The notes under the pieces were generated by a model. It searched no databases, was not told the DNA's origin, and saw nothing but the letters and a program-made list of their open reading frames with translations. From NCBI GenBank assembly GCA_964636985.1, contig CAZWSX010000003.1, positions 361,627 to 425,626 of the forward strand: a stretch of 64,000 bases of DNA, read 5' to 3'. The DNA is from an uncultured Pirellulaceae bacterium (GTDB taxonomy: Bacteria > Planctomycetota > Planctomycetia > Pirellulales > Pirellulaceae). Numbering within the stretch: position 1 is the first letter of the stretch; each line of letters starts with the position of its first letter. Positions 17,627 to 25,337 of this stretch are shown here, piece after piece. A program made the translations under genes and the position numbers.

Positions 17627-18670
17627 CTACCGCTCCCACCGAAAAATCTTTAGCGCCACCGCAAACGACCCCACGCCCCAAGCCAGCAACATCAGCGCCG
17701 GCTTCCAAAGCGTAATCAGCGATTCTCCCTCCAGCATGATCCCGCGCAAAATGTTCACCAGGCACGTCAGCGGCAACGCCTGAATGAATGGCTGAAAGAA
17801 AGCCGGGAAACGGTCGGCCGAAAAGAAGACGCCCGACCCAATCCACATCGGTAGCATGATCAAGTTCATCAGCCCGCTGATGGCGTCGATCGTATTCGCC
17901 CGCGAAGCGATCAAGAGTCCAAGTCCGGCGAAACTCGCTCCGCCGAGCAACATCGCAATCGCCAGTTCCAGGTAGTTTCCTTGGCAAGTCACGCCGAACG
18001 CAAGCCAACCGAACAGCAGCAAAAAGGTCATGTCGAACACGGTGAAGATCAACCGCGATAGCATCACGCTCAACAGAAAATCCCCCTTCCGCATCGGCGT
18101 CGCCATCATCCGCTTCAGTAGCTTGCGCATCCGCATGTCGACCAGCACGAAGCCGATCCCCCACATGCCGCCACCCATCAGATTCATGCCAATCAGGCCA
18201 GGCAACAAAAAGTCGATGTAGCGGCTCCCTTTCTCTTCCAGTCGCATTTCCGACACCGCCGGTGCCTGGCTTCCAAGCTGATCTCGCAGAAACACATTCT
18301 CCACCGCCTGACGGGCCAGCACGCTCTCCGCGCGCCGCGGCTCGAACCAATAGTCAGGCGATTCCTTGCTCGTATCGACCACCAGATTCGTCTTGCCCGA
18401 TTGCAGTCGCTTCTTCCAATCCTTGTCGGTCGAGTTGGCCACGACAAATCGCTTGTCGCTCTTCAGTTTTTCTACGAATATTTCAGCCTTCGGCCCGATC
18501 ACGTCGACCAGGTGCGTTTCCTTGGGCTCGCCCCGAAAGGCCAGCCCAAGCGCCGTCAGCATGAGTAGTGGGAACGCGTACGTCCAAAAAACAGCCTCCG
18601 GCTCGCGGAGGAATTGCTTCACCCGCGCCGTGATCAGTTGCACTAGCGCCGACCCGCGTCCGCCACTCAT
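17627..18670 (-). CDS. ABC-2 type transporter permease
   Basis: 347-aa protein with an N-terminal soluble part followed by six hydrophobic helices. The stop abuts the ATPase gene. Confidence 0.75.
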   Translation of the reverse strand: MSGGRGSALVQLITARVKQFLREPEAVFWTYAFPLLMLTALGLAFRGEPKETHLVDVIGPKAEIFVEKLKSDKRFVVANSTDKDWKKRLQSGKTNLVVDTSKESPDYWFEPRRAESVLARQAVENVFLRDQLGSQAPAVSEMRLEEKGSRYIDFLLPGLIGMNLMGGGMWGIGFVLVDMRMRKLLKRMMATPMRKGDFLLSVMLSRLIFTVFDMTFLLLFGWLAFGVTCQGNYLELAIAMLLGGASFAGLGLLIASRANTIDAISGLMNLIMLPMWIGSGVFFSADRFPAFFQPFIQALPLTCLVNILRGIMLEGESLITLWKPALMLLAWGVGSFAVALKIFRWER

Positions 18671-19627
18671 CTAGTTTTCTCCCCCGTCGCGCAAGTGTCG
18701 CCCGGTCAGCGAAATGAAGACGTCTTCCAGCGTCGCATGCCGCGTGGTCAACGTAGCGAACGATCGGCCACTGCTCTGCAAATGATTCATCAACGCCGGC
18801 AACGCAATATGCGGCTCGTCGACCGAAAGGCTGTAGGCGCCGTCCTCGTGCCGGACCGCCCGCACCGACGGCAAGTTCTGAAACTCGGCATCCGTCGCCT
18901 TCATTCCGTTTTCTTCAAGCGAGAAGTCAACAATGTGTTGCCCGCCCAAGTTCGCAATCAATTCCGCAGGCGTTCCCAGCGCGATAATGTTTCCATGATC
19001 CACCACGGCGACGCGGTCGCACAATCGCTCGGCCTCGTCCATGTAGTGCGTGGTGACGAACACGGTTTTGCCCGCATCGCGAAACGACCGGATGATCTCC
19101 CACAACTGCCGCCGCGATTGCGGATCGAGCCCCGTCGTCGGCTCGTCCAGAAAAAGAATGTCAGGCGACCCAACAATCGCACAAGCGACAGCCAAGCGCT
19201 GCTTTTGTCCGCCCGAGAGTTTCTCGACATAAGCGCCGGTTTTCTCTTGCAGCGAAACCTTCGCGATGGCTTCCTCTGCCGAAACGCCGCTTGCATAAAA
19301 CGATCGAAAAAGATGGACCGTTTCGCCGACGGTCAGCTTATCGGCCAAGCGCGTCTCCTGCAGCGAGATGCCAATCCGTTCGCGAATCGCTTGATCGTCG
19401 TGCCCCCACCGCAGGCCCAGCACTTCGATTTCGCCCGAGGTCGGCGCCAGCAGCCCCTCGATCATTTCCATGGTGGTCGTTTTGCCAGCACCGTTGGGCC
19501 CCAGCAAACCAAAGCACTCGCCACTGGCCACCTCCAAATCGATGCTGCGAACGGCCTCGACAGGCGGCTTGGCCGCATACGTTTTGACTAACTGCCGGCA
19601 CCGAATCGCCATCTTGGGAGGGTTCAT
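18671..19627 (-). CDS. ABC transporter ATP-binding protein (start 19627 or 19612 is more likely than the ORF-track start at 19831)
   Basis: Walker A GPNGAGKTT, ABC signature LSGGQKQRL, Walker B ILFLDEPT. ATG at 19627 (MNPPK) or 19612 (MAIRC). Confidence 0.85.
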   Translation of the reverse strand: MNPPKMAIRCRQLVKTYAAKPPVEAVRSIDLEVASGECFGLLGPNGAGKTTTMEMIEGLLAPTSGEIEVLGLRWGHDDQAIRERIGISLQETRLADKLTVGETVHLFRSFYASGVSAEEAIAKVSLQEKTGAYVEKLSGGQKQRLAVACAIVGSPDILFLDEPTTGLDPQSRRQLWEIIRSFRDAGKTVFVTTHYMDEAERLCDRVAVVDHGNIIALGTPAELIANLGGQHIVDFSLEENGMKATDAEFQNLPSVRAVRHEDGAYSLSVDEPHIALPALMNHLQSSGRSFATLTTRHATLEDVFISLTGRHLRDGGEN

Positions 19628-19877
19628 GCGTGAAATGATACTCGGCGGCGCCGGTACCGGCCACAAAGGGTAGGGAAGATCACGAAGCGTTGAAGGCCGG
19701 TCGACTGTGTAGCAATTCAAAGGCGGTCGAAGCGACACGATGAGAAAAGAAGAGGTTCGCGCTGATTTCTGATTAATCTGGTTCTCGCGCCAACCGCACA
19801 ATCTGGTGCCAATAGGAACCCGATTCTTCACAAGCGGCTCACCCTAGTTCCTTCTATACTCTGCGAACGTACGCCTC

Positions 19878-20735
19878 TCACTGAAAGCAATTTGATGTGT
19901 CAAACGAAATCTTAAATGGCTTACCTTCTCTTTCTCTTCTCACGATATCCATCAATTCGAAGAATCGCTCGCAACCATTTACGGGAACTGGCATAAACGC
20001 GCCCAGATGACTTACGGTTTCCCTTTTCACGGTGACAACAACAAGAAAAAACTCAACGTCGTTGACTTTGCCCGGTACAACGAAGTGCGGTTCGTCGATC
20101 GGGAGATCGTTGCTTTCCAAGCCAATGATCAGAGATTTGAGGTCCGGATGTGCCATAGTTGGGTCCTGAATCCGCCGTCTAATCGCTTGAACAATTTCGG
20201 CCGCTGCATATTCGTATCCATAGCACTTAAACAAAGCGAGATAAGCAGCACGCAGGATAGCTGTGTGAAAGACGTTTTTTGAATAGTTTGTGTAAGACAC
20301 GTTGAACCCAGAGACTTCGCCGGCCTTCATCACACGCACAACGTGTTGGAGCGCCTTTGGGTCAGTGGCACGGCCCACAACCCGAAAGTTCTTGGTTTCC
20401 GTTCCGCACGCCAGATCAGCAGCAATCCGTTGACCGTTAACATCGAGCATAGTCCTGAGCGTTCCAAAACCACGAAAGACATCTGACAGTTCCTGAAACC
20501 TGACGAGGTGCGAGTCGAGGGAACTGCCTTGTTCGTTATTGCATCTTGTACACGTCAACACGACTGCCTTGCCGCCCACCGCGCCGGGAACTACGTGGTC
20601 TATCGATAATCCGTCAAAGTGAGTTTGCTGCCAACAAAGTGGGCATATGAGTGCATCATCCGTGGTTGAAAGTTGTGCCGCGCGCTGGCTGGACGCATAG
20701 TGCTCAAACATTCTCCGATTTGTTCTCGCATTCAT
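19878..20735 (-). CDS. HNH-motif nuclease-like protein with ~200-aa C-terminal domain of unknown function
   Basis: CPLCWQQ...SIDHVVPGAVGG...LTCTRCNNEQG fits the CxxC...DH..P...CxxCN HNH signature. Spot counts give ~50% GC here against ~60-65% in the flanks. Confidence 0.55.
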   Translation of the reverse strand: MNARTNRRMFEHYASSQRAAQLSTTDDALICPLCWQQTHFDGLSIDHVVPGAVGGKAVVLTCTRCNNEQGSSLDSHLVRFQELSDVFRGFGTLRTMLDVNGQRIAADLACGTETKNFRVVGRATDPKALQHVVRVMKAGEVSGFNVSYTNYSKNVFHTAILRAAYLALFKCYGYEYAAAEIVQAIRRRIQDPTMAHPDLKSLIIGLESNDLPIDEPHFVVPGKVNDVEFFLVVVTVKRETVSHLGAFMPVPVNGCERFFELMDIVRREREGKPFKISFDTSNCFQ

Positions 20736-20777
20736 GTTCTTTGTCTCGAATAGAAATACCGGCGTAGGACATTCGGC

Positions 20778-21296
20778 TCAAAGTGAAGTCGCGGTCCGGG
20801 CTAACTCGCCAGCATTGAACAGCAATCTTTCAGGTCGCCCAGCGGCCACACAATTTGATTGTTGCAGATCGACCGTCACGTGTTGCGGCGTCAACTCCTG
20901 AGGATCGTTAACTTCGCAGACCGTGCCGATGATTTTATCAGCAGATGCGATGTCTCCTTCCGAACGAATGAGTACCGAGGCAAGCGTCTCCGTAACATCA
21001 TGCCACTTATCGGCGAGAAACTCCGTAGGTGACTGCAAAGCCGCTACGATGCCCTTCCAACTTGGGCTATCGCGGTCGGCAGCTTCGAACACGAATCCTT
21101 CATTTTGTCTGGCGCGCATCCACTCGCCGACGCCCTCCACAGGCAACAACTCCAAGAAGCTCACCGGAACATAGGGGCCGCAAGCCTGATAGAGCCGAAA
21201 GCTCGCGACGTCGACTCCAATGGCCTGGGGAACACGGCCAACGACGTAATGATTTCCATCCGTGTCGCAGATCATGATCAGTTTGAAACGCCACAT
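20778..21296 (-). CDS. hypothetical protein; co-oriented 42 nt upstream of the HNH-motif gene
   Basis: 172-aa ORF in the same lower-GC block with no recognisable motif. Likely co-transcribed with 19878..20735. Confidence 0.4.
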   Translation of the reverse strand: MWRFKLIMICDTDGNHYVVGRVPQAIGVDVASFRLYQACGPYVPVSFLELLPVEGVGEWMRARQNEGFVFEAADRDSPSWKGIVAALQSPTEFLADKWHDVTETLASVLIRSEGDIASADKIIGTVCEVNDPQELTPQHVTVDLQQSNCVAAGRPERLLFNAGELARTATSL

Positions 21297-21647
21297 GTTT
21301 GTTCTGCCTTGTCAATTTCCAATCGACCTCGATCATTCACGTCGGAATTCTAGAGACCGAGCGACAGGGATAAGCCGACTTTGACAGAACTTTGATACGG
21401 CCGCGTTTTGTTTTTGCGCAACCCATGCGCCAGCGGCCTGCAGAACATCCAAGAGCCCGTGCCATTGCCCCCTTACTAGCCACGCCCAAACAGGGCATTC
21501 CGAGGCTATCGCCAAATCCCCCGGGCGTTTCATGAAAAAATTCCGCCAACTGTTGCGCCGCCATCGGGGTTGCGGTTGACCTTCAGAGCCCTATTCCGAG
21601 GGCCTGGCCGCTAAAGTGCGCCCCTGTTTGATAACGGAGAATTAGCG

Positions 21648-21761
21648 ATGGTGGGATTGGGCAATCCGTTCGCAATAGCGATCGAACTCTTAGGCGTGAC
21701 CGCGATGGCGATCATTGTGATACTGCTTGCGACAGGCCGACGAGAGTTCGACCGCCGCTAA
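21648..21761 (+). CDS. candidate 37-aa hydrophobic small protein (below the ORF-track cutoff)
   Basis: ATG preceded by GGAGAA 8-13 nt upstream. Translation MVGLGNPFAIAIELLGVTAMAIIVILLATGRREFDRR is one TM helix with a basic tail. Stop TAA at 21759-21761. Confidence 0.2.
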   Translation: MVGLGNPFAIAIELLGVTAMAIIVILLATGRREFDRR

Positions 21762-21788
21762 GAATCGCCCCCCCTTCGATGCCGCCAA

Positions 21789-21861
21789 GTATCCCTGTCA
21801 GGAGTCGAACCTGAACTACGACCTTCGCAGGGTCGCGTGCGAATCCTTAACACTTCAGGGA
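21789..21861 (-). tRNA. tRNA-Arg (anticodon GCG)
   Basis: 73-nt cloverleaf on the minus strand. Acceptor GTCCCTG/CAGGGAT, D-stem GTGT/GCAC, AC stem CGACC/GGTCG with loop CTGCGAA, T-arm TCAGG-TTCGACT-CCTGA. No encoded CCA. Confidence 0.65.
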
Positions 21862-21869
21862 CAGAAAAA

Positions 21870-21942
21870 ATCGCCAGTTCAGGAATCGAACCTGATCTTC
21901 CAGCTTCGGAGGCTGACGTGCGTATCCAGCACACCCACCGGC
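21870..21942 (-). tRNA. tRNA-Arg (anticodon CCG)
   Basis: 73 nt. Acceptor CGCCGGT/ACTGGCG, AC loop CTCCGAA, T-arm TCAGG-TTCGATT-CCTGA. A paralog of the preceding gene, with the same D- and T-arms. Confidence 0.7.
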
Positions 21943-22008
21943 GTTTCTTGCGTTCAATGGTTTTTGCCACAGAGGGCTCAAAGGTTGAGAATCGAAGGGG
22001 AGAAGGGG

Positions 22009-22047
22009 TGAGTGGGAGGTAGGGAGCAAAAGATTTTCACTCCCACT
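22009..22047. repeat. inverted repeat within a CT/GA-rich spacer of the tRNA array
   Basis: GAGTGGGAG ... CTCCCACTC, a 9-bp stem with a 21-nt loop, embedded in polypyrimidine tracts (ctccttcaacaccccatctcacattcttctcc). Confidence 0.4.
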
Positions 22048-22115
22048 CTCCTTCAACACCCCATCTCACATTCTTCTCCATGTCCTCCGTGCTCTCTGTG
22101 TTTAAACAAACCGAA

Positions 22116-22186
22116 GCACGAGCGCGAGGAGTCGAACCCCGTCCAACAGTTTTGGAGGCTGTCTGCTCACCCAGGAGCGTCACTCG
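22116..22186 (-). tRNA. tRNA-Trp (anticodon CCA) probable; the 31-39 pair is a C-A mismatch
   Basis: Acceptor ACGAGTG/CGCTCGT, D-arm GCTC-CTGGGTGA-GAGC, AC region GACAGC-CTCCAAA-ACTGTT (the loop matches the classical Trp CUCCAAA), T-arm CGGGG-TTCGACT-CCTCG. Confidence 0.5.
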
Positions 22187-22263
22187 TAAATTTTTACTTC
22201 CCCTCTTCTCCGTTCCCTCCGTGTCTCCGTGGTGAAACTCTCTCCACGCTCTGCGGCAAACAA

Positions 22264-22349
22264 GCGGAAGGCGAGGGAGTCGAACCCACATCGCCGTGAA
22301 GCGAACCACGTTAGCACCGTGGCCCAGCCAACCGTATCTGGCTGCCTTC
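22264..22349 (-). tRNA. tRNA-Ser (anticodon GCT), class II with long variable arm
   Basis: 86 nt. Acceptor GGAAGGC/GCCTTCC, D-stem CCAG/CTGG, AC stem CCACG/CGTGG with loop GTGCTAA, long extra arm, T-loop TTCGACT. Confidence 0.75.
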
Positions 22350-22360
22350 CTCAAGGATCA

Positions 22361-22434
22361 ATAGCCGAAGTGGGAGTCGAACCCACAAGCACCAGACTCT
22401 CGATCTGGCCGCTTTGCCAATTTGCGTACTCGGC
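22361..22434 (-). tRNA. aberrant tRNA: anticodon GAG (Leu) in a short-variable-arm class I body with C33
   Basis: Acceptor AGCCGAG/TTCGGCT, AC stem CCAGA/TCTGG with loop TCGAGAG, T-arm GTGGG-TTCGACT-CCCAC. Only 74 nt, so there is no long variable arm. Confidence 0.45.
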
Positions 22435-22527
22435 TATGTGTGATTTGCCACAGCGAGAATCGCTCCCCATCTCCCATTCTCCCTCTCCCCCATTCTCCTC
22501 CCCCGACTCTTTGGCAAAATCCCGAAC

Positions 22528-22600
22528 ATGACTCGTGCGGGAATCGAACCCGCGTTCTCAGCGTGAGAGGCTGAAGTCCTGTACCGTTAGACGAACGAGC
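22528..22600 (-). tRNA. tRNA-Glu (anticodon CTC)
   Basis: 73 nt. Acceptor GGCTCGT/ACGAGTC, D-arm GTCT-AACGGTACA-GGAC (Glu-like), AC stem TCAGC/GCTGA with loop CTCTCAC, T-arm GCGGG-TTCGATT-CCCGC. Confidence 0.75.
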
Positions 22601-22610
22601 CAAAAGAAGA

Positions 22611-22691
22611 GTGCGCCGGGCAGGAGTTGAACCCGCAATGCCAAAGCGAGTGGTTTACAGCCACCTGGACTTGCCCATGTTCCAACCGACG
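22611..22691 (-). tRNA. tRNA-Tyr (anticodon GTA), class II
   Basis: 81 nt. Acceptor GCGTCGG/CCGGCGC, AC stem GGTGG/CCACT with loop CTGTAAA, extra arm, T-loop TTCAACT. Confidence 0.7.
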
Positions 22692-22724
22692 CATGCTTGC
22701 CTTGAAACACTGTGTTTTGCGATG

Positions 22725-22798
22725 ATGGCCCGAGTGGGATTCGAACCCACAGCATCTTCGGGTTTAAGCCAAAGTGGTCTGCCGGTTGCCTACCGAGC
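22725..22798 (-). tRNA. aberrant tRNA: anticodon TAA (Leu/UUA reader) in a class I body
   Basis: 74 nt. Acceptor GGCTCGG/TCGGGCC, AC stem TTTGG/CCGAA with loop CTTAAAC, T-arm GTGGG-TTCGAAT-CCCAC. The D-arm is poorly paired and there is no long variable arm. Confidence 0.45.
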
Positions 22799-22816
22799 CG
22801 CGGCGAAGCTCACCAA

Positions 22817-22887
22817 ATAGTCTCGGATGGAATCGAACCATCGTTTTCGGCGTGTCATACCGGCGCCCTGCCATTGGACGACGAGAC
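22817..22887 (-). tRNA. tRNA-Val (anticodon GAC)
   Basis: 71 nt. Acceptor AGTCTCG/CGAGACT (perfect), D-arm GTCC-AATGGCA-GGGC, AC loop ATGACAC, T-arm GATGG-TTCGATT-CCATC. Confidence 0.7.
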
Positions 22888-22907
22888 TGCATTCAGACCC
22901 CTTGAAA

Positions 22908-22977
22908 ATTGCAGGCCCCGGATTCGAACCGGGCAGCGCGGCCTTATGAGGGCCGCCCAGGCGCCAGCCAAACCTGC
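22908..22977 (-). tRNA. tRNA-Met or tRNA-Ile(lysidine) (anticodon CAT); short, poorly paired D-arm
   Basis: 70 nt. Acceptor TGCAGGT/GCCTGCA, AC stem CGGCC/GGCCG with loop CTCATAA, T-arm CCCGG-TTCGAAT-CCGGG. Confidence 0.55.
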
Positions 22978-23012
22978 ATAGCGTGTGGTTCGATCAAGGA
23001 TCGAACCCCTAA

Positions 23013-23094
23013 GTCGTCGAGGGGAGAGTCGAACTCCCATGCCTAACGGCGTTCCGTTCTGAGCGGAGTGTGTCTGCCAGTTTCACCACTCGAC
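23013..23094 (-). tRNA. tRNA-Leu (anticodon CAG), class II
   Basis: 82 nt. Acceptor CGTCGAG/CTCGACG (perfect), 3-bp D-stem with an 11-nt loop, AC loop CTCAGAA, extra arm GCC..GGC, T-arm GGGAG-TTCGACT-CTCCC. Confidence 0.7.
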
Positions 23095-23226
23095 GAGTGA
23101 CAAGAGAGGAGGAACGAGACATTGACCCGCTGAAGGTTCGCGCGGCATGCAAGAGAACATTTCGCGAAGCCTCAACCGGTCCAACTTATCGCTGCCCTCT
23201 CTCCCTTGGCGGCGTTGCTAGCGCCA

Positions 23227-23298
23227 GCGACTCATGTGGGATTCGAACCCACCTACTCGGATTGAAAGTCCGATGACCTCACCAGAAGTCAAATGAGC
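23227..23298 (-). tRNA. tRNA-Glu (anticodon TTC)
   Basis: 72 nt. Acceptor GGCTCAT/ATGAGTC, D-arm GACT-TCTGGTGA-GGTC, AC stem TCGGA/TCCGA with loop CTTTCAA, T-arm GTGGG-TTCGAAT-CCCAC. Confidence 0.8.
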
Positions 23299-23339
23299 CA
23301 TGTCTTCTCTACTGTCTACTGCTCTCCTATCTACTGTCT

Positions 23340-23365
23340 ATTTTTGGACGCCAGAGCGTCCAAAA
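23340..23365. terminator. bidirectional intrinsic terminator hairpin downstream of tRNA-Asp
   Basis: TTTTGGACGC-CAGA-GCGTCCAAAA: 10-bp stem flanked by T and A runs. It is preceded by tctactgtct-type direct repeats. Confidence 0.6.
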
Positions 23366-23369
23366 ATCA

Positions 23370-23444
23370 GCGTCCCTGGCGGGATTTGAACCCGCGGTCT
23401 CCACCGTGACAGGGTGGTGAGTACTCCTGGCTACTCTGCAAGGA
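23370..23444 (-). tRNA. tRNA-Asp (anticodon GTC)
   Basis: 75 nt. Acceptor GTCCTTG/CAGGGAC, D-stem GAGT/ACTC, AC stem CCACC/GGTGG with loop CTGTCAC, T-arm GCGGG-TTCAAAT-CCCGC. Confidence 0.8.
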
Positions 23445-23464
23445 CATGTGTCAACAAAACTAAG

Positions 23465-23535
23465 GTGGAGCCATCGGGAGTTGCACCCGAATCTCCGGTT
23501 TGCAAGACCGGCGTCTTCCTGTTGGACGATAGTCC
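23465..23535 (-). tRNA. tRNA-Ala (anticodon TGC), degenerate: G3:U70 present but an A4·C69 mismatch and an atypical T-loop TGCAACT
   Basis: Acceptor GGGACTA/TGGCTCC, AC stem CCGGT/ACCGG with loop CTTGCAA, T-arm TCGGG-TGCAACT-CCCGA. 3' trailer ACCT. Confidence 0.5.
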
Positions 23536-23652
23536 CATGTTTTGAGCAGTGGATCAGGAGATCAGTAGACCGAGTTGAGTAGCCGAAGAGTCATTGCATT
23601 CAACGTCCTCTCTGCTCTTGCTGCTTTCTCTACTGTCTCATCTCAACTCTCT

Positions 23653-23678
23653 ATTTTTGGTCGCAAGAGCGACCAAAA
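23653..23678. terminator. bidirectional intrinsic terminator hairpin downstream of tRNA-Ser(CGA); covarying paralog of the 23340 hairpin
   Basis: TTTTGGTCGC-AAGA-GCGACCAAAA. The A>T change in the stem is compensated on the other arm, and the same tctactgtct prefix is present. Confidence 0.6.
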
Positions 23679-23680
23679 AT

Positions 23681-23768
23681 GCGGGAGCCGTGGGACTCGA
23701 ACCCACAAGCCAGCATTAACCAGCCGCCTGTTTTCGAGACAGGTTCCTCATCCGATCCGGATGACTCC
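23681..23768 (-). tRNA. tRNA-Ser (anticodon CGA), class II
   Basis: 88 nt. Acceptor GGGAGTC/GGCTCCC, AC stem CCTGT/ACAGG with loop CTCGAAA, long extra arm, T-arm GTGGG-TTCGAGT-CCCAC. Confidence 0.75.
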
Positions 23769-23859
23769 CGTGAAAAGCGATTTCGTGCGGCCACACATTG
23801 CGAGGGAAGGCCTGCCCCCAAACCTTCGCCCGCAACACGTTGAACGCACTGCCATCGCA

Positions 23860-23934
23860 GTTGCGAAGACTGGAATTGAACCAGTGACAACCTGATTCAA
23901 AGTCAGGCATCGGTACCAACACCGAATCCTTCGC
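23860..23934 (-). tRNA. tRNA-Gln (anticodon TTG) probable
   Basis: 75 nt. Acceptor TGCGAAG/CTTCGCA (U1-A72, as in bacterial Gln), AC stem CCTGA/TCAGG with loop CTTTGAA, T-arm ACTGG-TTCAATT-CCAGT. Confidence 0.6.
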
Positions 23935-23950
23935 AATAATTACCGACCCA

Positions 23951-24023
23951 GCTGCGAGGGCTGGAATTGAACCAGCGTCACGGCGGTTAACAGCCCCCAG
24001 TCCTTACCAACAAGGAACCTCGC
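23951..24023 (-). tRNA. tRNA-Asn (anticodon GTT) probable; G·G mismatch in AC stem and extra nucleotides between the D- and AC-arms
   Basis: Acceptor TGCGAGG/CCTCGCA, D-stem CCTT/AAGG, AC GGGGG-CTGTTAA-CCGCC (the classical Asn loop), T-arm GCTGG-TTCAATT-CCAGC. Closely related to the neighbouring Gln gene. Confidence 0.5.
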
Positions 24024-24039
24024 AAGAATCTTGTTCTCA

Positions 24040-24110
24040 AAGCGTCTAGCGGGAATTGAACCCACGCCTCCGACTTGGCACGCCAGCGCGCTACCTCTAC
24101 GCCATAGACG
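24040..24110 (-). tRNA. tRNA-Gly (anticodon GCC)
   Basis: 71 nt. Acceptor GCGTCTA/TAGACGC (perfect), D-arm GCGT-AGAGGTA-GCGC, AC stem CTGGC/GTCGG with loop GTGCCAA, T-loop TTCAATT. Confidence 0.65.
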
Positions 24111-24149
24111 CATTTGCTACATCGACCGAATTGTCAAACATCGCTTTCA

Positions 24150-24221
24150 GAGCACCGGGTGGGAGTCGAACCCACGTACCTGCATTACGGGTGCAGAGTC
24201 CTAGCCGCTAAACGACCAGTG
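24150..24221 (-). tRNA. tRNA-Thr (anticodon CGT) with unusual C33
   Basis: 72 nt. Acceptor GCACTGG/CCGGTGC, D-stem GTTT/GGAC, AC stem CTGCA/TGCAG with loop CCCGTAA, T-arm GTGGG-TTCGACT-CCCAC. Confidence 0.55.
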
Positions 24222-24234
24222 CATTTGTTCGGTG

Positions 24235-24270
24235 ACCCGTCGAGCGCAAGCTTTTGACCGCGCTCGACGG
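24235..24270. terminator. strong hairpin between tRNA-Lys and tRNA-Thr (12-bp stem)
   Basis: CCCGTCGAGCGC-aagcttttgacc-GCGCTCGACGGG is a perfect inverted repeat. Confidence 0.45.
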
Positions 24271-24302
24271 GGACTGTATTTCCGTGCCTCAAAATCTTCA
24301 CA

Positions 24303-24375
24303 GTGGGACTCGACGGACTTGAACCGCCACCGACTCGGTTAAAAGCCGAGCATGCTGCCGCTAACACCTGAATCC
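24303..24375 (-). tRNA. tRNA-Lys (anticodon TTT)
   Basis: 73 nt. Acceptor GGGATTC/GAGTCCC, AC stem CTCGG/CCGAG with loop CTTTTAA, T-arm GGCGG-TTCAAGT-CCGTC. Confidence 0.7.
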
Positions 24376-24398
24376 CATTGGTTTCGTTCATGCTGTCA

Positions 24399-24470
24399 GT
24401 GGTCTGGGAGGCGCTCGAATCCTCGTATCCTGTTCTTCAGACAGGCGCTACACCGTCTCAGCTACCAGAC
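24399..24470 (-). tRNA. tRNA-Phe (anticodon GAA) with a non-canonical T-arm (4-bp stem, loop ATTCGAGCG)
   Basis: Acceptor GGTCTGG/CCAGACC (perfect), D-arm TAGCTGAGACGGTGTAGC, AC stem CCTGT/ACAGG with loop CTGAAGA. Confidence 0.6.
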
Positions 24471-24873
24471 CGTTTCGTTTCAAACCTTCCCTCCGCGCAC
24501 GAAAAAAGCCCGACATCCTGCGGACGCCGGGCTTGGCGAGGGAACTCGCTGCCAAGCAGACGTCACGTGATAAGTCGTAGTTCAAACTGTTCGGACCAAC
24601 CCAGCAGGTTGCTTCGCTCGCCTAAAGCGAGCGCGCTATCTAATTGGCTTTGATAGGCCAACTGTTTGCCGGATTGATTACTGGAACGTTTCATGACTTG
24701 GTCTCCCTGCTTTGGCTCAGCGAAAAACTCCGCCAGCACGCGACAGGGGATTTTTTGATTTGGGGAACCACTCGAAAGGGGTTTTTCACCGTCCTACGAC
24801 GGCGTCTTACTAATACGATGCTGCGAACCCAAGATTTGTTCGCGCGCCGGAGAAAAAAAGTTTGGGTGGCACT

Positions 24874-24890: not shown

Positions 24891-25337
24891 AGTCCAACCC
24901 CCCCGGATGAGCCCGCCGCACAACGCAGCACTTACAGGCCCCACCGACGTTCTTGCCTCGAAACCACTTCCCATTTAGGAAACTATTCGATCGGCCACGC
25001 TTCCACGTCTGCGCACTTTTCCCATCCGCACGAGATGCGTTGGCCCGTCGCGCGTGTCACATCACCGCTGCGCGCGGAACGCTTCCACGGCTTCGGACCC
25101 TGTGCACCTCCGAAGCTGAGCCAGCAATCCAAAGCAGCCCGTTCATTGACAATCTGGTTGAACGATTAGATCTGCCCCGGTCTCGCGATGGCCTAGCCTC
25201 GCCGCGCGAGACCGGGCCCGGGCCATGCTTTGTCCCTACTTCTCTCTCTACTGTCTACTTTCCACTTTCTACTGTCTGGCTCCCGGGGTTGGCGCCAGCG
25301 TCCCTCAGACGCCAGTTGCGCAAAGGTTCCTCTCCCT

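Follow-up and report, generated by a model that had tools for sequence, protein, structure and literature searches.

A window of 64,000 nucleotides from an uncultured Pirellulaceae bacterium (GenBank assembly GCA_964636985.1, contig CAZWSX010000003.1, positions 361,627 to 425,626) contains 21 co-oriented transfer RNA (tRNA) genes on the minus strand, spanning 2,682 bp (21790-24471) at 7.8 genes per kb and representing 16 amino acids. The best explanation for this array, with a probability of approximately 0.7, is that a Pirellulales chromosome has horizontally acquired a tRNA array unit ('L-array') of phage origin, in which the structurally odd members mostly represent conserved tRNA classes as opposed to products of decay. 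Judged from its sequence, the array is probably a usable spare tRNA set rather than a group of broken genes. To qualify as an L-array, a locus needs 20 or more tRNA genes with a density no lower than 2 per kb (PMC4758250; Tran et al. 2016, Santamaria-Gomez et al. 2021), a definition that includes the 21 genes found here, which share a single orientation and display no periodicity. Planctomycetes are listed in passing in both array surveys among the phyla with such arrays.

Genes were located using ARAGORN at default settings and the Rfam covariance model RF00005. ARAGORN returned 19 tRNA genes on the minus strand at 21789-24471 and no others across the 64-kb window, to which RF00005 added two that ARAGORN misses, tRNA-Glu(UUC) at 23228-23299 (52.3 bits) and tRNA-Ala(UGC) at 23466-23536 (50 bits). 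The Rfam tRNA model confirmed 17 genes at 35.8-60.1 bits (median 48), with both serine genes and tRNA-Trp (26 bits) matching only the tRNA-Sec model and tRNA-Met being detected by no Rfam model; each detector overlooked two genes. In order of transcription the array encodes tRNAs for Phe, Lys, Thr, Gly, Asn, Gln, Ser(CGA), Ala, Asp, Glu(UUC), Leu(CAG), Met, Val, Leu(UAA), Tyr, Glu(CUC), Leu(GAG), Ser(GCU), Trp, Arg(CCG) and Arg(GCG), leaving His, Pro, Ile and Cys as the isotypes without a gene. The spacers are 8-274 nt in length, short enough for co-transcription, with no periodic unit and only a single 45-nt spacer repeat. CCA is encoded by 0/21 genes, although position 74 is a C in 16/21.

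An initial annotation of positions 22361-24470 had described several array members as structurally aberrant, and every gene was laid out in an explicit standard cloverleaf register to check each claimed deviation. All of the deviations were present under this registration; the positions first given were displaced by one base and the minus strand had been left unstated. Two leucine genes, tRNA-Leu(GAG) (22362-22435) and tRNA-Leu(UAA) (22726-22799), do have short class I bodies with variable loops of 5-6 nt. The tRNA-Ala gene carries G3:U70, an A4·C69 mismatch and the T-loop UGCAACU with G55, tRNA-Phe(GAA) (24400-24471) has a 4-bp T-stem and 9-nt loop due to A53·G61, and tRNA-Met(CAU) (22909-22978) has a reduced D-arm in which positions 8-26 span 16 nt only, folding into a 3-bp stem (GGC/GCC) capped by a loop of 4 nt. 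Three genes had been credited with C33 or with a mismatched 31-39 or 27-43 pair; the features are real but the count was too low, with C33 in tRNA-Leu(GAG) (loop UCGAGAG) and tRNA-Thr(CGU) (24151-24222; loop CCCGUAA), and anticodon-stem mismatches C27·A43 in tRNA-Val(GAC) (22818-22888) and tRNA-Leu(CAG) (23014-23095), G29·G41 in tRNA-Asn(GUU) (23952-24024) and C31·A39 in tRNA-Trp(CCA) (22117-22187), the last of which lies outside the annotated range. Deviations additional to those first described were an absence of U8 from 8/21 genes (Lys, Gln, both Ser, Asp, Trp and both Arg), a 3-nt connector from acceptor stem to D-stem in several genes, and U50·U64 in tRNA-Ser(GCU) (22265-22350).

Both short leucine genes have relatives among phages. 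In a blastn comparison of the array with GenBank phages, the tRNA-Leu(UAA) gene matched a Microbacterium phage 'tRNA-Leu(cag)' 75 nt in length at 81% identity, and the tRNA-Leu(GAG) gene matched annotated 74-77 nt tRNA-Leu genes of Acinetobacter phage Acibel004 and of mycobacteriophage cluster C, a member of which, phage Stubby, carries three short tRNA-Leu genes consecutively. The odd D-arm GGTAGGCAACNGGNNGACCA, used to scan the viral contig collection IMG/VR, was present at 14 loci, 11 of which had arrays of 6-29 tRNAs. Across the phage loci and the viral loci gathered through this D-arm scan, 35/43 leucine genes were class-I-sized, some viral contigs held class-I-sized genes for all five Leu anticodons, and A73 was present in 31/31 distinct class-I-sized Leu sequences. 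Both window genes combine a Leu anticodon, a variable loop of 5-6 nt (4-6 nt for the class) and A73, and have a D-arm of the leucine type, for which the features looked for were U8 A9, a short D-stem and a long loop with A14, G18G19 and a 3' purine run.

Two types are distinguishable within this short-loop class. In type A, represented by the window tRNA-Leu(UAA) (D-arm UAGGCAACNGGCAGACCAC, variable loop GAUGCU, A73; Rfam 38.5 bits), the D-arm U8 A9 GGCAACNGGCAGACC A C and the GAUGCU variable loop are invariant, and the acceptor, anticodon and T stems vary freely. The type A alignment (A4, 18 sequences) has 97.8% of cells paired and double-sided change at 14/20 pairs, with a covariation score of 0.69 versus no more than 0.16 when the partners are slid; type A genes score 35-45 bits everywhere in Rfam. 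Type B, represented by the window tRNA-Leu(GAG) (variable loop UGCUU, A73, C33; Rfam 49.3 bits), has the D-arm CGC-AAAUUGGCAAA-GCG, a 3-bp D-stem and an 11-nt loop of the form AAAYUGGCARA, which is the architecture of class II tRNA-Leu and within the array is common only to the class II tRNA-Leu(CAG) (D-arm GUG-AAACUGGCAGA-CAC). The type B alignment (A5, 6 sequences) has 99.2% of cells paired and double-sided change at 17/20 pairs, and type B genes are also carried by plasmid-borne L-arrays in Mycobacterium chimaera and Nostoc sp. C052.

The premise that leucyl-tRNA synthetase (LeuRS) needs the long variable arm, on which the aberrance of these two genes had been argued, does not hold, as variants of tRNA-Leu lacking the arm are still charged by E. 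coli LeuRS, and leucine identity in E. coli resides in A73 and D/T-loop tertiary elements (A15-U48, G18G19, A20a) and not in the long arm (PMC9976931). The same source states the long arm as general to tRNA-Leu, with animal mitochondria as the sole exception, from which it appears that the phage and array class is under-recognised; the class has been noted once in passing, by Behra et al., who report a short variable loop in the cluster tRNA-Leu(UAG) of mycobacterial horizontal gene transfer (HGT) clusters (PMC6582537). The occurrence of short-arm tRNA-Leu in phages, plasmids and this chromosome contradicts the textbook long-arm rule outside animal mitochondria and provides natural substrates with which to study LeuRS recognition. 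Given A73, the leucine-type D-arm and the conserved, covarying families, the proposal that the short leucine genes are pseudogenes or mischarging tRNAs is implausible. Derivation of tRNA-Leu(GAG) by mutation of an Ile, His or Pro tRNA was also considered, and was rejected as its D-arm is leucine-type and common to phage leucine tRNAs of all five anticodons. Separately, class-I-sized tRNA-Tyr genes (70-73 nt) with a truncated D-arm were observed in phage arrays (L081:2456-2528 and L089:3027-3096) beside class II tRNA-Tyr, which points to loss of the long arm beyond leucine.

The G55 of tRNA-Ala also belongs to a wider pattern. A scan of IMG/VR with a degenerate T-arm pattern revealed a viral tRNA-Ala(UGC) (L102:2232-2305) with G3:U70 and the identical UGCAACU loop, on a contig (IMGVR_UViG_3300045391_005805, 198-8093) in which approximately 42 of 46 tRNAs have a UGCRANN T-loop, i.e. 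G55. At least 120 viral contigs in IMG/VR (L118-L237, e.g. L144, L169, L177 and L185) have adjacent G55-type T-arms, and ARAGORN annotation of these contigs gave G55 in 346/964 tRNAs, with some arrays being entirely G55 and many being mixed. The D-loop GG was present in 498/505 U55 tRNAs versus 41/346 G55 tRNAs (Fisher p = 2e-173), the G55 tRNAs carrying AAYAG in the D-loop in place of GG, and so by these sequences A18:G55 appears to take the place of the tertiary pair G18:U55 in the G55 class. The window tRNA-Ala, with D-loop AACAGGAA and T-loop UGCAACU, has the form seen among G55 tRNAs (an AACAG(G) motif), the placement of A18 depending on the loop register. This match of D-loop form suggests that its G55 is the mark of a coherent structural class and not a random change. 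No description of an A18:G55 class was found in the searchable literature, and an exact 25-mer of the window Ala T-arm had no match in IMG/VR.

Several of the remaining deviations recur in viral homologues. C33 was found in 3/7 distinct class-I Leu(GAG) sequences, namely the window gene, L084/L088 (loop UCGAGGG) and L089. Non-U33 bases occurred in 8% of 238 viral tRNAs versus 0/13 bacterial controls, frequencies which are indicative and not unbiased, given that the viral sets derive from motif-based scans and the control is a small set of 13 tRNAs from chromosomal loci. The tRNA-Thr(CGU) gene shares 80% identity with a viral tRNA (L093:2209) that has the same acceptor, D-arm and T-arm and likewise C32-C33, and related viral Val(UAC) genes begin the anticodon loop in the same way. 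Three viral tRNA-Trp genes share the T-arm of the window gene (CGGGG/CCUCG) and have A31·C39 where the window has C31·A39, and the C27·A43 mismatch of the window tRNA-Val is also present in a viral tRNA-Val (L091:3788). Truncated D-arms, with 13-16 nt at positions 8-26, make up approximately 3.5% of viral tRNAs and provide a loose precedent for the 16-nt D region of tRNA-Met, a gene that folds as a clean cloverleaf. Minimum free energy folding of the single Trp, Ala and Leu(UAA) sequences gave no cloverleaf, an uninformative outcome that is common for unmodified tRNAs. The tRNA-Met(CAU) gene was also considered as an initiator or tRNA-Ile2, but it is without both the C1xA72 mismatch and the three consecutive anticodon-stem G-C pairs; on these positions it is most likely an elongator tRNA-Met. 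Degeneration, as first proposed for these oddities, is accordingly not indicated for Leu(GAG) C33, Ala G55, Trp 31-39 or Val 27-43, all of which recur in phage homologues. A conserved counterpart was not found for Phe A53·G61, Asn G29·G41 or Ala A4·C69, and for these three degeneration is possible.

Helix integrity and identity elements across the array are consistent with usable tRNAs. In the acceptor, anticodon and T stems of all 21 genes, 7/357 pairs are mismatched (2%), leaving 98% intact. Pseudogene status, marked by broken helices or lost invariant nucleotides that prevent a cloverleaf or elbow, is thus not indicated for most genes but is possible for Phe (A53·G61) and Asn (G29·G41). The rate of 0.32 mismatches per tRNA (6 in the 19 ARAGORN-called genes) compares with 0.46 in the viral set and 0.08 in the bacterial control. 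Read against the E. coli identity sets (in part from PMC9976931), the identity elements retained are G3:U70 for Ala; C2-G71, G3-C70 and U73 for Gly; G1-C72 and C2-G71 for Thr; A1-U72 and G73 for Trp; U1-A72 and G73 for Asn; A73 for Leu; G73 and the long arm for Ser; and G73 and C38 for Asp. Of the sense codons in 18 open reading frames (ORFs) of the window, 68% are readable by anticodons of the array, which pick the top codons, and the three leucine anticodons cover 96% of leucine codons (GAG reading CUC/CUU, 39%; CAG reading CUG, 31%; UAA reading UUG/UUA, 26%). The Rfam scores of 35.8-60.1 bits overlap those of phage arrays, approximately 35-69 bits with a median of approximately 53, while a Pirellulaceae chromosomal tRNA-Glu(UUC) scores 66.7 bits versus 52.3 for the array tRNA-Glu(UUC), from which it clearly differs in sequence.

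The best-surviving alternative, to which only a minor share of the probability is assigned, is that the array is a decaying relic, e.g. of a lost prophage, with residual order only and with aberrant members that are pseudogenes no longer processed or charged. This would account for the low covariance scores (median 48 bits), for the stem mismatches in Phe, Asn, Ala (A4·C69) and Ser(GCU), for the missing U8 in eight genes and for the four absent isotypes, and the mixing of canonical and dead members in such arrays, as the initial annotation had noted, is documented, 23/26 tRNAs being charged and 3/26 being pseudogenes in the L-array of Anabaena (PMC8421152). Against decay, the 2% of mismatched stem pairs is no worse than in phage tRNAs, the identity elements are kept, and the short leucine forms, C33, G55 with A18, Trp 31-39 and Val 27-43 are common to distant homologues and backed by covariation. 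Further, the three leucine anticodons divide up 96% of host leucine codons, and in a sister strain four tRNAs are available for comparison and show one change among them, located in a variable-arm loop.

There are several points that weigh against a functional, phage-derived L-array, some of which favour a relic directly. The tRNA strand yielded no sigma-70-like promoter, and a strong terminator-like hairpin (24506-24534, minus strand; 13 pairs and a T-run) lies 35 nt upstream of tRNA-Phe, such that the array may depend on terminator read-through or may be silent. Both tRNA-Met and tRNA-Trp fall under the Rfam tRNA threshold. The Phe A53·G61 pair is hardly precedented, non-G53:C61 pairs occurring in 3/284 phage tRNAs (approximately 1%), and for Asn G29·G41 and Ala A4·C69 there was no conserved counterpart among the sequences gathered, which include no close array relative; these three, like the tRNA-Met D-arm with its loose parallels, may be real defects. 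The phage, plasmid, viral and metagenome collections scanned yielded no close relative of the array as a whole, and tRNA arrays adjoin 0/7 of the inspected loci with homologues of the neighbouring HNH endonuclease gene. The nuclease-resistance step proposed below is by analogy, and the array is presumed to be 'supernumerary' given its lack of four isotypes and the divergence of its tRNA-Glu from that of a Pirellulaceae chromosome, within 64 kb of the genome.

Neofunctionalisation, whereby the class I bodies with leucine anticodons would receive a different amino acid as deliberate mistranslation, or would act as tRNA-derived regulators, is highly improbable. Mistranslating tRNAs exist in other bacteria, a single mutation would convert the anticodon GAG to one for His, Pro or Ile (which make up three of the four isotypes lacking from the array), and tRNA bodies do at times cross anticodons, the viral homologue of tRNA-Thr(CGU) being labelled 'Val-UAC'. 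These points are outweighed by the retention in both short leucine genes of A73, the leucine-type D-arm and G18G19, with A14/A15 and A20a also in Leu(GAG), and by the invariance of the identity features in 31 homologues spanning all five Leu anticodons. Every anticodon loop in the array is 7 nt, and there is no partner synthetase or regulator gene in the surrounding island; nothing in the analysis supports the tRNA-derived regulators that had been suggested. That the window is instead part of a phage or prophage genome with the array as its active tRNA cluster is the least credible reading, since in spite of the phage-like tRNAs and nearby HNH endonuclease the flanks are planctomycete chromosomal genes, PHROGs gave generic matches only with no structural or replication genes (10 ORFs, approximately 13 kb around the array), and the low-GC island is only approximately 5 kb.

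The genes flanking the array are ordinary chromosomal ones, encoding an ABC-2 transporter, a GGDEF-CBS protein, acetolactate synthase (IlvB), and LRR and CHAT-TPR proteins, with the window IlvB being 74% identical to homologues from Pirellulaceae and Pirellula metagenome-assembled genomes, which places the host among the Pirellulales, at a distance from any representative genome. The array lies within an island of low guanine-cytosine (GC) content (19700-24800; GC 0.47-0.57 versus approximately 0.59-0.60 in the flanks), which also includes an HNH_5 endonuclease gene (19878-20735, minus strand) 1 kb downstream of the array and, between the two, a 172-aa ORF (ORF172; 20778-21296, minus strand) without a family match. 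No array was found beside ilvB at the 12 other planctomycete loci compared, the relatives concerned being distant. A sister strain from another sample (L099, Logan ERR10900138_19138), reached through a member of the HNH protein cluster at 100% (rounded) and represented by a contig that ends inside the array, is 99.17% identical over window positions 17684-22371, with substitutions five to six times rarer in the island than in the ABC genes (0.24% versus 1.35%; Fisher p = 9e-6). Such low divergence is consistent with mobility, in which the two copies of the island would share a later ancestor. The horizontal acquisition that the initial annotation had envisaged agrees with the low-GC island, the 12 related loci without an array, the phage-like tRNAs and the low island divergence, which together give moderate support to acquisition and a sporadic distribution.

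Searches beyond these loci returned few relatives. Comparison of the whole array with phages and plasmids by blastn gave single-tRNA matches only, at approximately 78-91% identity, and a metagenome scan with the Asn-Gln T-arm pair gave six unrelated loci. A genome-contig scan with IlvB found no syntenic array, one with the HNH protein found no relative, and an exact-protein look-up of the HNH protein had no match. ORF172 matched nothing in Pfam or PHROGs, Pfam likewise had no match for a small upstream ORF or a 290-aa ORF, and a similarly placed 174-aa ORF was compared with ORF172 and proved unrelated. An HNH gene is also present in the M. chimaera and Nostoc arrays; the idea that the HNH family of the window gene travels with arrays was dropped, as 7/7 homologue loci of the window HNH_5, which itself lies inside the island, were away from arrays and tRNAs. 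Three of these homologues (L100, L103 and L104; approximately 50% identity, in other planctomycetes) adjoin transposases, type I restriction-modification genes and toxin-antitoxin genes, which is the setting of a mobile or defence island and not a tRNA setting.

Among known systems, the L-array of Anabaena PCC 7120 (PMC8421152, PMC4758250, PMC10272220) is similar in having at least 20 dense co-oriented genes, no periodicity, a patchy distribution, an adjoining HNH gene and a mixture of canonical and odd members. In Anabaena the array is stress-induced, and the regulator TrcR represses it via direct promoter repeats until translation stress occurs (PMC8421152, PMC10272220); direct repeats near the window array recall these, although the window motif TAGACAGTAGAGA differs from the Anabaena TGTAGTAT site. 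The Nostoc sp. C052 plasmid array, a relative of the Anabaena trn operon, also has a short-variable-loop tRNA-Leu. Unlike the Anabaena array, that of the window is chromosomal and not plasmid-borne, belongs to another phylum, is unrelated in gene order and sequence with only single-tRNA matches at approximately 80-90% identity, and has HNH homologues that are not array-linked. On the Nostoc plasmid pC052_G a 72-nt tRNA with the anticodon CUA (amber) was also observed (L116:5553-5624; ARAGORN label 'Pyl'), possibly a suppressor tRNA inside a bacterial array.

Both leucine families are shared with the tRNA clusters of large phages (mycobacteriophage cluster C/Bixzunavirus, Microbacterium, Acinetobacter and IMG/VR) and with mycobacterial HGT clusters, and the phage and HGT clusters (PMC10264068, PMC6582537, PMC5966550) display C33, anticodon-loop changes and mismatches at 31-39 and 27-43, as in the window. 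Covariance scores of the phage clusters are comparable, and U at position -1 occurs in 14/21 window genes and in approximately 50% of mycobacterial HGT genes. The window array differs in its bacterial chromosomal location, devoid of surrounding phage genes, and in its larger share of non-U8 tRNAs (38% versus 14% in phage clusters), and its gene order had no match among the phage arrays found. At VapC/PrrC-type sites the anticodon loops of phage tRNAs are altered (PMC10264068), and phage tRNAs evade both anticodon nucleases and those with a cleavage site in the variable loop (PMC10264068, PMC13096335); T5 tRNA-Tyr escapes Retron-Eco7/Septu PtuAB (PMC11555353, as cited in PMC13096335), and mycobacterial arrays have been called putative anti-defence systems (PMC12803027). 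Nuclease-resistant phage tRNAs are recognised by substitutions, relative to the host tRNA, at sites known to be bound or cleaved by nucleases (van den Berg et al. 2023). The changes in the window are suggestive by their location, in the variable arm of class II tRNAs and the anticodon loop, where known defence nucleases act, but resistance here is only inferred, and no published escape case involving loss of the leucine variable arm or G55 was found. The class I tRNA-Leu of animal mitochondria similarly lacks the long arm and is recognised through A73 and A14 (PMC9976931); it is of an unrelated lineage, and the window genes, in contrast, fully keep the D/T-loop elbow and a class-II-type D-arm.

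A possible working of a phage-derived L-array in this chromosome can be outlined. The array would be transcribed as one to three polycistronic precursors, with units perhaps bounded by modules of a hairpin and a TAGACAGTAGAGA repeat, from which RNase P and RNase Z would excise the tRNAs; as no gene encodes CCA, this would be added after processing. Host synthetases would be expected to charge the tRNAs, going by the identity elements kept, and codon counts show that their anticodons match the commonest codons of the host. By analogy with the phage work, the deviating features may remove sites of tRNA-targeting nucleases in the class II long variable arm and the anticodon loop, with the array providing a nuclease-insensitive or stress-inducible back-up tRNA pool; in the case of leucine, loss of the long arm would remove a nuclease target with LeuRS recognition kept. 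A broader and decidedly speculative proposal, which is considered doubtful, is that of one design, in which the tRNAs of phages and derived L-arrays have been re-engineered at every tRNase surface, i.e. the long variable arm (Leu and some phage Tyr), position 32/33 and the elbow, with A18:G55 for G18:Psi55, making the window array a domesticated nuclease-proof kit with its own repeat-motif operators.

The locus itself is of modest significance, being one more L-array in an under-sampled phylum. Its wider value is that apparent gene defects become testable, in that tRNA arrays that have spread hold alternative conserved architectures which are probably still usable by host enzymes, and pipelines that flag or overlook such genes undercount functional tRNAs, as with the two missed here by ARAGORN and the two by Rfam. 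If the altered sites do represent nuclease escape, arrays of this kind would mark an arms race over tRNA and be a source of nuclease-resistant tRNAs.

Candidate control elements were identified within and upstream of the array. An 11-bp hairpin, UUUUUGGACGC-CAGA-GCGUCCAAAAA, occurs at 23339-23367, directly 3' of tRNA-Asp and in the 45-nt repeat, and again at 23652-23680, directly 3' of tRNA-Ser(CGA), with the arms UUUUUGGNCGC...GCGNCCAAAAA and a compensatory A:T to T:A stem change between the two copies. The 13-nt motif TAGACAGTAGAGA has 6 matches in 64 kb versus 0.32 expected, all on the tRNA strand (minus) and forming three tandem pairs: at 23306-23340 between the first hairpin and tRNA-Glu(UUC), at 23627-23653 between the second hairpin and tRNA-Ala, and at 25245-25278, approximately 770 nt upstream of the first tRNA, where it is a candidate promoter or operator. 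The succession of hairpin and motif pair resembles a putative terminator or processing hairpin with a putative promoter or operator after it. In a scan of IMG/VR the tandem motif gave one match, a coding-repeat false positive, and the spacer hairpin gave none. A small ORF of 43-58 aa (24563-24739, minus strand), with no family match, precedes the terminator-like hairpin upstream of tRNA-Phe.

The individual genes range from canonical to strongly modified, all being on the minus strand and scores being those of Rfam. The first gene, tRNA-Phe, has A73 (55.2 bits) and is followed by tRNA-Lys(UUU) (24304-24376; A8, A73, 46.2 bits), tRNA-Thr, which in addition to its altered loop has U73 (48.8 bits), and tRNA-Gly(GCC) (24041-24111), which is canonical and has the top score (60.1 bits). 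The tRNA-Asn gene has a 3-nt connector (35.8 bits), a feature shared with its nearest in-array relative, tRNA-Gln(UUG) (23861-23935; G8, U1-A72, 36 bits). The class II tRNA-Ser(CGA) (23682-23769) has a 7-bp variable arm, G73 and A8 (35 bits, tRNA-Sec model), tRNA-Asp(GUC) (23371-23445) has C8 (35.9 bits, a partial match) and tRNA-Glu(UUC) has U14 for A14. Downstream of these, tRNA-Leu(CAG) is an ordinary class II gene with a 13-nt variable region and A73 (44.2 bits), tRNA-Met, called by ARAGORN only, has the mini D-arm GGC-UGGC-GCC with its other stems perfect, and tRNA-Val has A73 (54 bits). The tRNA-Tyr(GUA) gene (22612-22692) has a poorly paired 12-nt variable region and A73 (38.4 bits), and tRNA-Glu(CUC) (22529-22601) is near-canonical (58.9 bits). 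At the 3' end of the array are the class II tRNA-Ser(GCU), with G73 and A8, tRNA-Trp, with A8, and the two arginine genes, tRNA-Arg(CCG) (21871-21943; G8, 3-nt connector, 40.7 bits) and tRNA-Arg(GCG) (21790-21862; A8, 48.2 bits), the latter being the last gene. Except for tRNA-Glu(UUC) and tRNA-Ala, all of these were called by ARAGORN.

Further structure was observed in the spacers. The Lys-Thr spacer (24223-24302) contains a hairpin with a 12-bp stem, CCCGUCGAGCGC...GCGCUCGACGGG, and the spacer between tRNA-Trp and tRNA-Arg(CCG) (21990-22078) is occupied by an imperfect inverted repeat of approximately 90 nt with weak matches to Rfam microRNA-precursor families. Several spacers are purine-rich on the transcribed strand.

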